DNA from: Candidatus Woesearchaeota archaeon
GTDB lineage: Archaea; Nanobdellota; Nanobdellia; Pacearchaeales; GW2011-AR1
Length of the DNA: 64,000 nt
Direction: 5' to 3'
Assembly: GCA_964533515.1 (NCBI GenBank)
Contig: CAZHMB010000001.1
Location: 8,640-72,639 of the forward strand
In this document: positions 5,226-37,737 of the stretch, piece after piece
Position numbering within the stretch: the stretch's first letter is position 1
Layout: each line of letters begins with the position of its first letter
Made by a program: the position numbers and the translations under genes
Notes under the pieces: generated by a model
Database searches by the model: none
The model's input: only the letters and a program-made list of their open reading frames with translations
Told to the model about the DNA's origin: nothing

Positions 5226-5777
5226 TTGTTGTTTTGTAGGTTATATATGCTTAAAGGAAAATTCCCGATTAATTTGACTAAAGAGGTTCTTACTAGCAAT
5301 AGCTCGGAGGCTTTTTCGCTGTATGATAAAAGTTGTTTTGGTGAACCCTCTAAAGGCAAAGATAAAATTTCTTATGGGTATTCAGAGGCTGTTTATTTAG
5401 TGGAGACTAAGAAAGCGGAAGTTTTTTCTGGTAAAAAGAAAATTGATGTAAAAGAACTGATGAAGAAACTTTCAAGGGTTGATAAGAAAATTTATATTAA
5501 ATATCCTGTATATAGCGACTTGAGGGAAAAGGGTTACATTGTTAAAACGGCTTTGAAGTTTGGTGCGGACTTTAGAGTTTATCCGAAAGGGAAACGTCCG
5601 GGGAATGCTCATGCGAAATGGGTTGTTTTTGTTGATCACGAAGCCGCTAAGACGAACTGGCAAGAATTTTCTGCGAAGAACAGGGTCGCACATAGCACAA
5701 AGAAAAAACTTTTATTGGGAATAGTAGATTCGGAGGAGGATGTTACATATTACGAGGTGGGGTGGGTGAGGCCGTAA
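5226..5777 (+). CDS. endA: tRNA-splicing endonuclease (homotetramer-type EndA)
   Basis: 183 aa. C-terminal catalytic signature YSDLREKGYIVKTALKFGADFRVYPKG...HAKWVVFV matches the EndA catalytic domain (Tyr, His and Lys triad context). Confidence 0.75.
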   Translation: MLFCRLYMLKGKFPINLTKEVLTSNSSEAFSLYDKSCFGEPSKGKDKISYGYSEAVYLVETKKAEVFSGKKKIDVKELMKKLSRVDKKIYIKYPVYSDLREKGYIVKTALKFGADFRVYPKGKRPGNAHAKWVVFVDHEAAKTNWQEFSAKNRVAHSTKKKLLLGIVDSEEDVTYYEVGWVRP

Positions 5778-6961: not shown

Positions 6962-7171
6962 ATGGGAAAGATAAAAACGCGTTTAGTGAAGAGAACTGCA
7001 AGAACTCTATTTGGAAAAGACTTTCCGTTTACAGAGGATTTCGCAGAGAATAAAAAGATTCTTGGAATGGACATGCCAAGTAAGAAAATTAGAAATCAAA
7101 TTGCAGGATATTTGTCTAGATTGAAAAGGCAAGATAATGCTAGACTTAAATCTTTAAGTGTTGAAGAATAA
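6962..7171 (+). CDS. rps17e: 30S ribosomal protein S17e
   Basis: 69 aa. MGKIKTRLVKRTARTLFGKDFPFTEDFAENKKIL matches the conserved eS17 N-terminus. Confidence 0.8.
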   Translation: MGKIKTRLVKRTARTLFGKDFPFTEDFAENKKILGMDMPSKKIRNQIAGYLSRLKRQDNARLKSLSVEE

Positions 7172-7174
7172 AAA

Positions 7175-7426
7175 TTATTTTTTCTTGTTTGAGTTTTTCA
7201 GAAGTTTATCAATTTTTTTCTCAACCCTTTGCAAATCTCCACGTATTGTGTAAAGTGCTTTCCTTTTTTTTCTGTTGACTATTAAATTTATCACTTGAAA
7301 GACTATCCAGAGGAATATTATTACTCCTGCCGCGCTTAGCCAGAGGGCTATTCTTCCAAGATTCCCTATTAGCCATAGCGGAACCTCTACTACGTTGCTG
7401 GCGTTTATCACCTCACCTACTACCAT
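7175..7426 (-). CDS. small membrane protein with basic C-terminal tail
   Basis: 83 aa. One or two TM helices followed by KKRK and K-rich tail. Confidence 0.3.
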   Translation of the reverse strand: MVVGEVINASNVVEVPLWLIGNLGRIALWLSAAGVIIFLWIVFQVINLIVNRKKRKALYTIRGDLQRVEKKIDKLLKNSNKKK

Positions 7427-7592: not shown

Positions 7593-8078
7593 TCATTCTA
7601 AATTCTTTTTTATCTTTTCTGTAATTTCTTTCATTTCTTCGTCAGAAAGTTTTGGAATAGGATTTGTTATCTTTGTGAAACCTTCTTTTGATAGGGGACA
7701 TACTTTAATGTGAACATGCTCAAATTCTAAACCTTCAACAAGCAAACCCGTCTTCAGAGGTTTCATTGTTTTGTCCACCGCTTTTGCGATCTTCTTTGAG
7801 ACAATCATTAAACTCGAATAAATTTTATCGTCCAAATCAAATAGCCAGGGAGCAAGATGTTGTTTAGGAATAACTAATGTTTGACCCTTTGAAAATGGAA
7901 ATGCGTCCAGAAACGCTATAGAAAAGTCATCCTCATATATTTTGTAACATGAAATCTCCCCTTTGACAATTTTGCAAAAAATACAATCTTCTTTTTGTCC
8001 CATGTCCAAATAACCTCTCTGAACTTTAAATACTTTTTTATAAAAAAATAAAAAAAGAATCAACGCCTTCTCTTTCAA
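7593..8078 (-). CDS. HIT-family (histidine triad-like) hydrolase
   Basis: 161 aa. CIFCKIVKGE...YEDD..AFLDAFP..KGQTLVIPKQH followed by a degenerate triad EHVHIKVCP. Confidence 0.55.
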   Translation of the reverse strand: MKEKALILFLFFYKKVFKVQRGYLDMGQKEDCIFCKIVKGEISCYKIYEDDFSIAFLDAFPFSKGQTLVIPKQHLAPWLFDLDDKIYSSLMIVSKKIAKAVDKTMKPLKTGLLVEGLEFEHVHIKVCPLSKEGFTKITNPIPKLSDEEMKEITEKIKKNLE

Positions 8079-8118
8079 TAAGTCCCTAATAAATAAAAAA
8101 TAAAAATCTTGCTAAGAC

Positions 8119-8296
8119 TTATCTTCTTTTTTTCTTAGCTTTCTTCTTAGCTTTCTTCTTAGCTTTCTTCTTAGCTTTCTTCTTAGCTTTCTTCTTAGCT
8201 TTCTTTTTCACAGCTTTCTTTTTCACAGCTTTCTTTTTCACAGCTTTCTTTTTCACAGCTTTCTTCTTAACTGCTTTTTTCTTTTTTGCGGCCATT
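8119..8296 (-). CDS. 59-aa lysine/alanine-rich basic protein, (AVKKK)4(AKKK)7, histone H1-tail-like
   Basis: Minus-strand ORF just under the 60-aa cut-off of the ORF track. Translates to MAAKKKKAVKKKAVKKKAVKKKAVKKKAKKKAKKK...KKRR*. GAGGTG Shine-Dalgarno-like motif lies 7-12 nt upstream of the ATG. Encoded entirely by the tandem repeat. Confidence 0.45.
8134..8266. repeat. tandem micro-repeat: 12-mer cttagctttctt x~6 then 15-mer tttcacagctttctt x4
   Basis: Direct perfect tandem copies visible in the sequence. They encode the AKKK and AVKKK units of the small basic ORF. Confidence 0.9.
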
Positions 8297-8420
8297 ATAA
8301 AAACACCTCTTTTTAATTAGTTATACTAAGAATTAATTGTTTAAAAACTCTTCGGTGAAATTGAAATTGAAATTTTTCAAAAATAAAAAGATAACTTTGC
8401 CGACGGAAAAATTAAGAATA

Positions 8421-10163
8421 TTATTTTACAATTTTCCCTGCGTTTTCTAATTTTATTTCAGAATTTATTAATTTTCTCAAAATTTCTTTTAATTCAGAAA
8501 TTTTTACACGAATTTGTTTTTCAGAATCGCGATCTCTTAAGGTGACGTCGCTGTTTTTTAAGGAATCAAAATCTATTGTTATTGCGAAAGGCGTCCCTGC
8601 AATTGCAGATCTTAAGTATCTCTTACCAATAGAACCAGATTCATCATAATCAACAACCACTTCATTCTCAAGATTTTCTTTTATCTTCTTTGCAACTTTA
8701 ATCAACTCTGGTTTTTTCATCAAAGGAAAAATAGAAACCGCTATAGGTGCCATTGAATATGGGACCCTAAAGATTGTTTTTCCTTCTCCTTCAGATTTTC
8801 GGTCATAAAAAAGATCAATCAGCGTGTAAGTTGGCCTATCAGTACCAAAAGCAATTTCTAATACGTGGGGGACAAACTTTTCTCCATTTTCTCTTGTGGC
8901 TTCTAATTTTTTCCCAGAAAATTTTGCATGTTGCTTTAGATCATAATCCGTTCTATCATGAACCCCACAACACTCTGTCCATCCAAAACTATTTAATTTT
9001 ATTTCTATATCCCATGCGTCGTCAGCATAAAATGCTTTTTCGTCGGGATGGTGTTGTCTTAATCTAATTCTCTCTTTTGGAATTCCAAAACCTAAAAATT
9101 GTTGGTAGGCTAACCAAATGCACCACCCATATGCTTGACTCTTAATGAATTTCTTTTTCAACGCTTCTTCGAGAGTAATCGTAATCGGTTCTTTTTCTGC
9201 GTCTTGAGATTTGTGATCCCAGAATGGAAGCTTCTCCTTTTTTATTTCCTGAAATTGTTCCCAATCATTTTTTGTCTTCGGATCAACAAATATCTGGCCT
9301 TCTGCCTGAGTAAATTCCCTTCCCCTTAATACATTCTGTCTTGGAGAGATCTCATTTCTATAGGCCTTACCTATTTGGAAAACTCCAAGAGGTAATTTTT
9401 TCCTGAAATAATTATAAAATCTTAAATAGGGAAGATAAGTGACCGTTGCAGTTTCTGGTCTCAGCGAGGCTTCCACTCCAGCAACTTTGGTCTTCATCAT
9501 CAAACTTTGTGTTTCAATCGCTTTTTCGAAATTTCCTTTGCAAGAAGGACACTTAATATCCTTTTGATTAATAAAATTAATTAATTTTTCGTTGCTCCAT
9601 GCGTCTGCCGCCACATCAAATTTCTCTTCAATGATTTTATCCGCTCTGAAAACAGCCTTACACTTTGAACATTTAATTGTTCTATCTTTGAAGGTTTCTA
9701 AATGTCCTGAAGCTTTCCAAACAACATCCGGTAAAACTGTTGGCCCTTCCAATTCTCGCAAACCGTTTGCATTAAAAATTTTTCTTACAGAATTCTCCAC
9801 TTTATTTTTTAATAATTTCCCTAAGGGACCATATGTATAAAAACCCGCTAGCCCCCCATAAATTTCTGGTTCTGGGCCCCAAATAAAACCCGATTCACTT
9901 ACGAAGCTAGCAAACTCTTTTTCATCATCGGTTGAATTGCTTGTTTTTTCTACTGCATTATCTTCTTTTTGTTCTTCCATGTTTTGTTGTTTATTTTTTT
10001 GCTTATTTAAATCTTTCATAATTTTTTTAGATTTCTCCTCGGCTTGTTTCTTGTTTGCCCCCAGATAAGCGAGGGTTATTGCTTTTACTTTGCCATCTAT
10101 CCTTTTTGATTCTCTTAAATAAAAGTAATCTTTATCGTTGATCTTCTTTTTTACTACAAACAT
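8421..10163 (-). CDS. glyS: glycyl-tRNA synthetase (archaeal/eukaryal-type dimeric class II)
   Basis: 580 aa. GFIWGPEPEIYGGLAGFYTYGPLG is the class II motif-1 region typical of archaeal GlyRS. Anticodon-binding C-terminal domain. ~80-aa K/E/Q-rich N-terminal extension. Confidence 0.85.
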   Translation of the reverse strand: MFVVKKKINDKDYFYLRESKRIDGKVKAITLAYLGANKKQAEEKSKKIMKDLNKQKNKQQNMEEQKEDNAVEKTSNSTDDEKEFASFVSESGFIWGPEPEIYGGLAGFYTYGPLGKLLKNKVENSVRKIFNANGLRELEGPTVLPDVVWKASGHLETFKDRTIKCSKCKAVFRADKIIEEKFDVAADAWSNEKLINFINQKDIKCPSCKGNFEKAIETQSLMMKTKVAGVEASLRPETATVTYLPYLRFYNYFRKKLPLGVFQIGKAYRNEISPRQNVLRGREFTQAEGQIFVDPKTKNDWEQFQEIKKEKLPFWDHKSQDAEKEPITITLEEALKKKFIKSQAYGWCIWLAYQQFLGFGIPKERIRLRQHHPDEKAFYADDAWDIEIKLNSFGWTECCGVHDRTDYDLKQHAKFSGKKLEATRENGEKFVPHVLEIAFGTDRPTYTLIDLFYDRKSEGEGKTIFRVPYSMAPIAVSIFPLMKKPELIKVAKKIKENLENEVVVDYDESGSIGKRYLRSAIAGTPFAITIDFDSLKNSDVTLRDRDSEKQIRVKISELKEILRKLINSEIKLENAGKIVK

Positions 10164-36579: not shown

Positions 36580-36691
36580 AGCCTGCGCTGAGGATTGAAC
36601 TCAGGATAACCTAAAGGTCACGAGAACCCCTTCTGACGAAGAGGGCCTCTTCGTTACCAACGAAACGCTCTACCAACTGAGCTACACGGCC
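36580..36691 (-). tRNA. aberrant tRNA-Thr (GGU)-like gene with ~39-nt insertion in the variable-loop region and mismatched acceptor stem
   Basis: 5' part is canonical: GGCCGUG-UA-GCUC-AGUUGGUA-GAGC-G-UUUCG-UUGGUAA-CGAAG, anticodon GGU. 3' end has a canonical T arm CUGAG-UUCAAUC-CUCAG followed by CGCAGGC-U. Between them is an insertion that contains a 7-bp hairpin, CCUCUUC-GUCA-GAAGGGG. An intron at 46/47 would leave variable loop AGGUC. Only 5 of 7 acceptor pairs form. TATA ttttttatag lies 22-31 nt upstream. Confidence 0.45.
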
Positions 36692-36730: not shown

Positions 36731-37060
36731 TTATTTGTTGGCAAGTTTCATTATGAATAAAACCAATAAAACAATCAAGAAAGCCAGATCTATAACCCCG
36801 AAGATTATTACCAAAAGCATAAATATGTTTGACAAGAGAACATTGGCGATTGCCATCGATATTAAATAAGAGACTAAAGAAAGAACCAAAAATAGAATAA
36901 AATTTTTGAGAGCTATTTTTAGTTTTCTTGGGGTTGATCTCGCATAAACTTTTTTAGATTTTTTCGGAGACTTCTTTACTTTTTTTGAAGCCAGTTTGCT
37001 CTTTGATTTTTTCACAACCTTCTTGGAAACTTTCTTTTTTGTCACCTTCTTTTTTGCCAT
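36731..37060 (-). CDS. membrane protein with K-rich N-terminal tail (KKKVTKKKVSKK...)
   Basis: 109 aa. ~45-aa poly-Lys/Ser basic N-terminus followed by 2 TM helices. Confidence 0.4.
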   Translation of the reverse strand: MAKKKVTKKKVSKKVVKKSKSKLASKKVKKSPKKSKKVYARSTPRKLKIALKNFILFLVLSLVSYLISMAIANVLLSNIFMLLVIIFGVIDLAFLIVLLVLFIMKLANK

Positions 37061-37101
37061 CTTATGTAATTAGATAGTAGCTCTCTTTTTTAAATGTTTC
37101 T

Positions 37102-37602: not shown

Positions 37603-37737
37603 TAGCCCCACCAGGATTCGAACCTGGGTCAACAGGTATTCCCAAGCTCGCTCGCGTTATCAACGCACGCAAATTTAATCGTGCTCGCGAACTTGCTCAC
37701 CAGAACCTGTCATACTTGACCGCTGTACTATGGGGCT
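37603..37737 (-). tRNA. tRNA-Gln (CUG) with 62-nt intron after position 37
   Basis: Exon 1 (37737..37700): AGCCCCA-UA-GUAC-AGCGGUCAA-GUAU-G-ACAGG-UUCUGG. Exon 2 (37637..37603): A-CCUGU-UGAC-CCAGG-UUCGAAU-CCUGG-UGGGGCU-A. Perfect acceptor and anticodon stems. TATA attttttaaa lies 24-33 nt upstream. Confidence 0.7.

Follow-up and report, generated by a model that had tools for sequence, protein, structure and literature searches.

The window analysed here is a 64,000-nt stretch of archaeal DNA (Candidatus Woesearchaeota archaeon, assembly GCA_964533515.1, contig CAZHMB010000001.1, positions 8,640 to 72,639), and our subject within it is a small minus-strand open reading frame (ORF), made almost entirely of lysine and alanine codons in tandem repeat, that lies between the genes for glycyl-tRNA synthetase (GlyRS) and a HIT-family hydrolase. 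This mini-ORF starts with an ATG at 8295-8293 and stops with a TAA at 8121-8119; a preliminary description, made from the DNA letters, had given it 59 residues and an end at 8296, that is, one residue and one base too many. The predicted product contains 37 Lys, 2 Arg, 13 Ala and 5 Val and no acidic residue (64% Lys, 22% Ala), which gives it a net charge of +39, an isoelectric point of about 12 and a mass of 6.6 kDa. Its features and neighbours are collected in Table 1.

Most of the ORF consists of two adjoining arrays. In the first, one synonymous variant unit, GCAGTTAAGAAGAAA, comes before GCTGTGAAAAAGAAA repeated four times without change, and the second has GCTAAGAAGAAA six times unchanged plus one variant copy, so that the perfect tandem array reported before holds for four 15-nt and six 12-nt copies and fails for one variant of each. 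Across the repeat, three of the six frames stay open, and a start codon together with a stop is found only in the Lys/Ala frame; the two open plus-strand frames would read as Leu/Phe/Ser-rich protein, have no ATG, GTG or TTG and are not listed as ORFs.

Table 1. The mini-ORF, its repeats and signals, and the flanking genes (window coordinates)
Feature	Position	Strand	Details
Protein-coding ORF, stop TAA	8119..8295	-	58 aa, MAAKKKK(AVKKK)5(AKKK)7RR
15-nt tandem array, AVKKK units	8197..8277	-	Tandem Repeats Finder (TRF): period 15, 5.4 copies, 95% matches, score 141
12-nt tandem array, AKKK units	8128..8205	-	TRF: period 12, 6.5 copies, 98% matches, score 149
Shine-Dalgarno-like GAGGTG	8304..8309	-	8 nt before ATG (-14..-9)
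Conserved promoter block: TATA-like TTTTTAAA (8347-8340, -52..-45 from ATG), then CAATTAATTCTTA	8327..8347	-	upstream alignment
T5 and T6 runs, 13-28 nt after stop	8091..8106	-	archaeal-type oligo-T terminator (inferred)
Upstream neighbour, glycyl-tRNA synthetase	8421..10163	-	Pfam tRNA-synt_2b, HGTP_anticodon; syntenic anchor, separate gene
Downstream neighbour, HIT-family hydrolase (136 aa)	7593..8003	-	Pfam HIT; syntenic anchor

The mini-ORF is flanked by signals of its own. About 60 nt upstream of it are conserved among orthologous loci (given L numbers below), and the eight upstream regions that we aligned share TTTWTAAA at about -52..-45, then AAAA(G)AGGTG, then a spacer of 7-8 nt to the ATG; the promoter block is kept though the identity of neighbouring proteins among these loci is no more than about 40-70%. 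Within the block, the 20-mer TTWTAAACAATTAATTCTTA has a single match in the window even when three mismatches are allowed, and when used as a metagenome probe it retrieved L091, L098, L100 and L111, for which tblastn showed synteny. The preliminary description had claimed a Shine-Dalgarno (SD) sequence for the ORF, and this is borne out by the GAGGTG of the window and by (A)GAGGTG, GAGGTT or GGGGTG at equal spacing in eight orthologous loci. The 6-mer SD of the mini-gene is among the strongest in its genome, where a 4-mer SD core stands upstream of 26% of proxy genes against a background of 9%. Each of the eight orthologous loci examined has T-runs of at least five no more than about 30 nt behind the stop codon. 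Scanning with a bacterial hairpin-terminator model found no terminator-like site, and a sigma-70 scan, a bacterial model that is inapplicable to an archaeon, found promoter-like sites no commoner than in shuffled controls. Because the downstream HIT gene has TATA- and SD-like signals of its own, the mini-gene looks like a single-gene unit.

The region from the TATA-like box to the predicted transcription start (8321-8347, minus strand; CAATTAATTCTTARTAT...TAATTAA) is conserved more than the coding sequence and holds the self-complementary AATTAATT/TAATTA twice, a pairing that suggests a candidate operator for a dimeric regulator, overlapping the promoter. The 20-nt promoter block also turned up in a leaderless layout, only 8 nt from an ATG, at L067:4126-4273 and L110:1559-1698 (-). 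The ORF behind it (MANGDSERRNKRKDKKREKKKHPYKIGGKFRGTKILKKK in L067, MASASEQRNKKKDKMREKKKNPYKKGGRQRCTPKHS in L110) is a different conserved small basic ORF, which adjoins a multi-pass membrane protein, pilin-like genes and a HIT-domain protein; the two loci share the 20-mer near a HIT gene, but given the different ORF and context they were rejected as orthologues.

Three independent assemblies (JGI 3300025669, ENA ERZ27315536 and Logan SRR5581654) contain an identical GlyRS gene followed by the same downstream gene start and repeat. Since these assemblies agree, and since the slot, the promoter and the SD-like motif are kept in distant relatives, a chance origin can be dismissed, and we are confident that the mini-ORF is a real gene. 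One could still suppose that the array is non-coding, or was produced by the assembly, and that a frame stays open across it by accident: short-read contigs do break at the repeat, and half of the frames across it are open. This explanation has to contend with the same start and repeat structure in independent assemblies, with non-repetitive orthologues that occupy the same slot behind the same promoter and SD, and with the lack of any Rfam family at the locus, whether at the gathering threshold or at E<=1, and we consider it very improbable. Exact look-up of the 58-aa protein found no record in 153 billion gene calls, and exact look-up of the 136-aa HIT protein likewise returned nothing.

Codon usage adds to the case for translation. 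AAG makes up 49% of the lysine codons of the mini-ORF (18 of 37) as compared with 29% across 65 long ORFs of the window, and the lysine codons follow the patterns AAA-AAG-AAA or AAG-AAG-AAA, which keeps every A-run to 7 nt at most. When the protein was recoded synonymously at genomic usage, the mean longest A-run was 10.6, and none of 10,000 recoded sequences stayed at or below 7; in all seven orthologues examined, A-runs likewise do not exceed 8. On successive AAA codons ribosomes slide and the output falls (PMC4363877), and because poly-A has this effect, the low A-runs fit with selection for translatability. Among the alleles seen, none carries a frameshift or a premature stop.

Comparison with near-identical strains suggests that the arrays are still changing. 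Over 8 kb, L001 and L002 share 99.8-99.9% identity with the window (three mismatches), and both have seven AVKKK units to the five of the window, while L001 has eight AKKK units to the seven of the window, for a protein of at least 72 aa; all short-read contigs break at or inside the array, and exact copy numbers await read-level confirmation. Such breaks are expected because of the repeat, and population heterogeneity would fit with them as well. The variation in repeat number that the preliminary description had proposed is thus seen in short-read assemblies, as 5+7 against 7+8 units between near-identical strains.

The genes near the mini-ORF encode class-II GlyRS, the HIT hydrolase, ribosomal protein S17e, the tRNA-splicing endonuclease EndA and RNase Z. 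The GC content of the window is 30-38%, and its GlyRS is 74-78% identical to that of metagenome-assembled genomes (MAGs) labelled Pacearchaeota or Woesearchaeota. These features, together with intron-containing tRNAs, place the organism among the DPANN archaea, in the Nanoarchaeota/Pacearchaeota/Woesearchaeota group. An order of GlyRS, X (the slot of the mini-gene), HIT, in some cases Alba, S17e, a protein of about 300 aa and EndA is held in L005, L098, L100 and L116-L123, and the positional orthologues in these loci and in L111 are all small basic proteins. The slot of L005, a Pacearchaeota MAG whose GlyRS is 74% identical, holds a 26-aa ORF (MAKKKAKKKAKKKTKKKAAKKKKKKR) with imperfect repeats and other codons, in the fully retained order GlyRS, X, HIT, tRNA-Met, a small transmembrane protein, S17e and the ~300-aa protein; that of L098 holds an 18-aa version (MPKKKRRTTKKKTARKKR), and those of L100 and L111 hold orthologues that are not made of simple repeats (for example MARAKTPKQLAVKIKSLKKQVTKLEQQRKKALTTKKKKPARRKAAKRRPARRKAKRRRR). 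In relatives, where the preliminary description had proposed to look for similar ORFs, the slot is filled by small basic ORFs with conserved promoter and SD. A search for Lys-rich mini-ORFs at 61 GTDB-representative GlyRS loci found only that of L005, and in L004 and L007, the closest GlyRS relatives, synteny is lost downstream.

This setting raises the possibility that the protein is directed at RNA, either as a lineage-specific, ribosome-associated microprotein in the manner of eL41, bS22 and bTHX or as a tRNA- or RNA-binding helper that acts in trans, encoded beside GlyRS and analogous to the lysine-rich helical appendages of eukaryotic aminoacyl-tRNA synthetases. Ribosomal microproteins of this kind are extremely basic single-helix peptides of 18-40 aa, Arg/Trp-rich, non-repetitive and invariant in length. 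In most relatives the gene lies directly downstream of GlyRS, among S17e, EndA, RNase Z and tRNA genes, and the 18- and 26-aa orthologues of L098 and L005 are comparable to ribosomal microproteins in size and charge. The lysine-rich domains of eukaryotic aminoacyl-tRNA synthetases are protein-RNA interaction modules (PMC4394549), and Hc2, a bacterial protein discussed below, itself binds RNA strongly (PMC2848022). At the same time, no Pfam ribosomal microprotein or WHEP domain was matched even at E<=10, nor did the PDB sequence search match a ribosomal microprotein; a four-fold variation in length and perfect repeats that vary between strains would be abnormal for ribosomal proteins; a promoter of its own precedes the gene, which in L116-L118 stands apart from GlyRS with MscS in between; and the GlyRS relatives L004 and L007 have no mini-gene downstream. 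An RNA-directed role seems unlikely to us, while carrying more weight than the other alternatives, which are, in falling order, a drifting remnant, polyphosphate (polyP) binding and the artefact considered above.

The orthologues of L100 and L111 gave access to a wider family. A profile of the two proteins retrieved 30 proteins from a collection of 5.8 billion sequences, and an exhaustive hidden Markov model (HMM) search of 1.84 billion cluster representatives yielded 40 clusters at E<=1e-3, nine of them at E<=1e-10. Nearly all members are 33-83 aa long, have no Pfam domain and are named only 'hypothetical protein'; as judged from these searches, this is an undescribed and narrowly distributed DPANN family. 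In the contigs of three distant members that we checked, GlyRS is followed, sometimes after MscS, by X, sometimes by HAD, and by HIT, with Alba, S17e, the ~300-aa protein and EndA further on. Full-length members begin with the motif MA[KR]AKTPKQLxIKIKSLKKQVxKLE, in which T6, P7, Q9, S16 and E25 are invariant and positions 10, 14, 17, 21 and 24 are L, I, V, M or F in 96-100%, a heptad spacing of 4-3-4-3. AlphaFold2 (AF2) predicts a helix over this N-terminal module, with a predicted local distance difference test (pLDDT) score of 90-97, and the modelled amphipathic helix is probably a dimerisation or docking module.

Behind the module the tails are hypervariable, with 9-51 residues, 50-77% Lys plus Arg, and Ala, Val, Pro and Thr as fillers. 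They end in RR or KR in 51 of 64 members, and the window protein ends in KKKRR. Tails that can hardly be told apart from that of the window protein are found in P0038 (KKKVVKKKVVKKKVSKKKKKR; ...KKKTTKKKVVKKKVVKKKVSKKKKKR), P0041 and P0062. Other members show decayed 12-, 15- and 30-nt periodicity in their tails (72-84% matches), and because of this, tandem duplication of four- and five-codon units is seen as a recurrent mode of evolution in the family, of which the window array, with 95-98% matches, is simply the youngest. Four members (P0004, P0039, P0044 and P0054) have aberrant hydrophobic or non-basic C-termini (for example ...KKRRRYIFIFPILNFSYLSIYF), which may reflect frameshift or read-through at the A-rich tail, or slippage in sequencing or assembly.

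An HMM of the N-terminal module matches L100, L111 and L116-L123 (1e-12 to 1e-20) and finds nothing in six frames of the 64-kb window, of L005 or of L098. What the window protein retains is the slot, the promoter, the SD, the initial Met-Ala, the composition and periodicity of the tail, and the KKKRR end; MA- are the only residues of the N-terminal motif that it has in common with the family. Judged by these features, the family has tail-only members in the window, L005 and L098, and in the window protein the tail is expanded by repeats. Its membership rests on position and tail features: phmmer, run with the 58-aa protein, listed 8000 candidates, none of them at E<=1e-3, composition correction stripping the low-complexity matches, and hhalign of the protein against the family profile aligned one column, so that neither result speaks for or against homology of the tails. 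On whether the module was lost once or repeatedly, the pairwise identities of S17e, p296 and HIT disagree with the GlyRS grouping.

Loss of the module invites the view that the ORF is a decaying remnant, that is, a polybasic sequence, perhaps still expressed, that has drifted without selected function since the invariant module went, its array growing and shrinking neutrally. Lengths of 18, 26, 58 and at least 72 aa would suggest relaxed constraint, and the repeat is very young (95-98% identity). Mere drift would sit poorly with the promoter block, SD, ATG, MA- start and -KKRR end kept in three tail-only lineages, with reading frames intact in every allele seen, and with an AAG/AAA alternation that holds A-runs at or below 7 against the genomic codon bias; DPANN genomes, moreover, are compact and rarely retain dead genes. 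We think this explanation somewhat less probable than an RNA-directed role.

The explanation that we prefer, with chances that we would call about even, is that the mini-ORF is a real, independently expressed gene for a sequence-unspecific, nucleic-acid-coating polycation, derived from a DPANN microprotein family by reduction to the tail. We infer that the ORF is translated, that its product binds nucleic acid, and that DNA, the most likely target, is favoured over RNA. The ancestor would have had a zipper-like N-terminal helix and a C-terminal polybasic tail of Lys, Arg, Ala, Val and Pro, and the lineage of the window would have lost the helix module. The tail would lately have been lengthened by in-frame tandem duplication of the 15-nt (AVKKK) and 12-nt (AKKK) units, presumably through replication slippage or unequal recombination, with copy number still differing between near-identical strains. 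An abundant product of charge +39 would bind and neutralise nucleic acid by charge, and would probably turn helical on binding. The C-terminal tail of histone H1 is expected to be disordered when free and turns helical once its charges are neutralised on DNA; by analogy with it, we read the single continuous helix that AF2 predicts for the window protein (pLDDT 96) only as helical propensity after charge neutralisation.

The likeness to H1 tails and to bacterial Hc1-type nucleoid proteins that the preliminary description proposed stands as far as composition and the similar pentamer and tetramer repeats are concerned (PMC2848022), and does not extend to family relationship: Pfam scans of the 58-aa protein at E<=0.01 and at E<=10 found no Linker_histone, Hc1, HC2 or other family, and the full-length orthologues gave no Hc1 match in Pfam. 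Searches of Pfam, NCBIfam and PDB sequences with the window protein and its orthologues returned only sub-threshold coiled-coil noise (Csm1_N, Osmo_CC, Ribosomal_L29 at E=0.37 and PspA at E=0.43). Among the closest analogues are chlamydial Hc2 (hctB) and Bordetella BpH1, which consist of consecutive Lys-rich pentamers in strain-dependent number and bind DNA and RNA (PMC2848022). Like them, the window protein has consecutive Lys-rich pentamers, with fillers drawn in those proteins from Ala, Val, Thr and Pro, whose number varies in frame between strains; unlike them, it is archaeal rather than bacterial, has 58 rather than 165-237 aa and three basic residues per four to five rather than two per five, and has no conserved flanking domains. 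Chlamydial Hc1 (hctA) has a conserved domain for dimerisation at its N-terminus and a Lys-rich C-terminus that binds DNA (PMC2848022), a plan to which the conserved N-terminal helical module and Lys-rich tail of the full-length DPANN proteins are analogous only, the family being half the size of Hc1 and the window protein being without the module.

With the C-terminal domain of the eukaryotic linker histone H1 the window protein shares a K/A-rich, low-complexity, highly basic character, while it has no winged-helix globular domain, no S/TPKK motifs and no Pro; its Lys density is 64% as against roughly 40% in that domain. Pro does occur in the tails of other family members (PAKKK, KRKP) and in their N-terminal KTPKQ. 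The trypanosomatid H1, a tail-only H1, belongs to the same comparison. The tails of Pseudomonas AlgP/PhaF resemble the window protein in their tandem four-residue Lys/Ala repeats, the number of which is a mutational hot spot (PMC9239181); AlgP differs from it in having 352 aa, a large N-terminal domain and KPAA units with one basic residue in four, where AKKK has three in four, and there is no homology.

AlgP also suggests another target. Its KPAA repeats bind DNA as well as polyP, and its Lys-rich repeat tail is found at polyP granules, with a repeat number that varies among isolates (PMC9239181); by the same token, the mini-protein might act on a polyanion other than nucleic acid, as a granule organiser or a polyamine-like counter-ion of the kind proposed for the AlgP tail, and any peptide of charge +39 would bind polyP. 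This is pure analogy, and near the gene we found no polyP metabolism gene and no granule-related context; we regard the idea as improbable, less so only than an artefact.

A nucleoid role accords with the practice of nominating archaeal nucleoid proteins by single-gene units and small basic character, both of which are found here (PMC7613761). The Lys-rich candidate nucleoid-associated protein of Methanomassiliicoccales is a folded protein of 74 aa with an isoelectric point of 9.6, and we rejected it as a relative, retaining it as a precedent only (PMC7613761). The preliminary description had placed the protein in a lineage without canonical histones, a premise that finds no support: histones and Alba have been recorded by published surveys for both Pacearchaeota and Woesearchaeota (PMC6136690), and in relatives Alba is encoded four to six genes from X. 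The 64-kb window, which covers just part of the genome, yielded no homologue of histone, Alba, Sul7d, MC1 or HU.

Several points weigh against a nucleic-acid-coating role. In none of its six frames does the window encode the N-terminal helix, where the family is best conserved, so that the protein may have a lesser or a different function, and orthologue lengths from 18 to at least 72 aa indicate weak constraint. By sequence, the protein is related to no characterised DNA-binding family, and a single helix of pLDDT 96 is not physically meaningful for an isolated peptide of charge +39. As for the supporting evidence, the copy numbers come from short-read assemblies that break at the repeat, the copies of a repeat do not count as separate observations in the codon argument, and units of 12 and 15 nt keep the frame automatically.

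Going further, one may imagine a DPANN-restricted class of zipper-plus-polybasic-tail microproteins that coat chromatin or RNA and whose tails evolve through repeated in-frame slippage. The window protein would then be a pure, polylysine-like polycation of tunable length, expressed from an unusually conserved promoter/operator, an archaeal equivalent of linker-histone tails beside archaeal histones and Alba, with its repeat number as a rapidly adjustable 'charge dose', in effect a contingency locus. We offer this as a speculation, rather unlikely as a whole. DPANN archaea have tiny genomes in which many small genes lack annotation, and experiments have hardly touched their chromatin and RNA biology; the locus defines a conserved microprotein family, often missed or truncated by gene callers, with an unusually conserved promoter and a clear biochemical prediction, namely polyanion binding with a dose set by repeat number. 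Should the protein be abundant, archaeal chromatin would gain an H1-tail-like component, and nature would offer a case of a protein of which little but a charge-carrying repeat is left. The locus also shows convergence with Hc1, Hc2, BpH1 and AlgP of bacteria; as a mere drifting remnant it would be a minor curiosity.

A few further observations concern the surroundings. GlyRS is only about 37% identical between the type found in the window and L005 (574-580 aa, with an N-terminal extension of about 80 aa) and that of L098, L100 and L111 (about 485-496 aa), with EndA 65-68% and S17e 53-63% identical across the same loci, which suggests two GlyRS lineages in one slot and hence a putative replacement in situ. 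Between GlyRS and the mini-gene, at approximately 8398-8414 of the window (minus strand), lies a palindromic motif of a T-run, CCGTCGG/CCGACGG and an A-run (for example TTTTTCCGTCGGCAAAG). The same palindrome stands right after the GlyRS stop in L005 (approximately 5726-5745), L098 (TTTTTTTCCGACGGAAAAA), L100 and L111, in intergenic sequence that is otherwise not conserved, and it may be a terminator or a protein-binding site. In L116-L118 and L121-L123 Alba is directly beside S17e, a position taken in the window, where the stretch compared is 6962-7426, by an 83-aa membrane protein (7175-7426, minus strand).

Elsewhere in the window, two Rfam tRNA matches on the minus strand, at 36580-36691 and 37603-37737, are 112 and 135 nt long; they were missed by ARAGORN and presumably contain introns, which fits with the EndA gene in the window. 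The minus-strand ORF at 36731-37069 encodes a Lys-rich N-terminal segment (MAKKKVTKKKVSKKVVKKSKSKLASKKVKKSPKKSKK...) fused to a hydrophobic C-terminal transmembrane region, a further polybasic low-complexity segment in a genome whose proxy proteome is 12% Lys.

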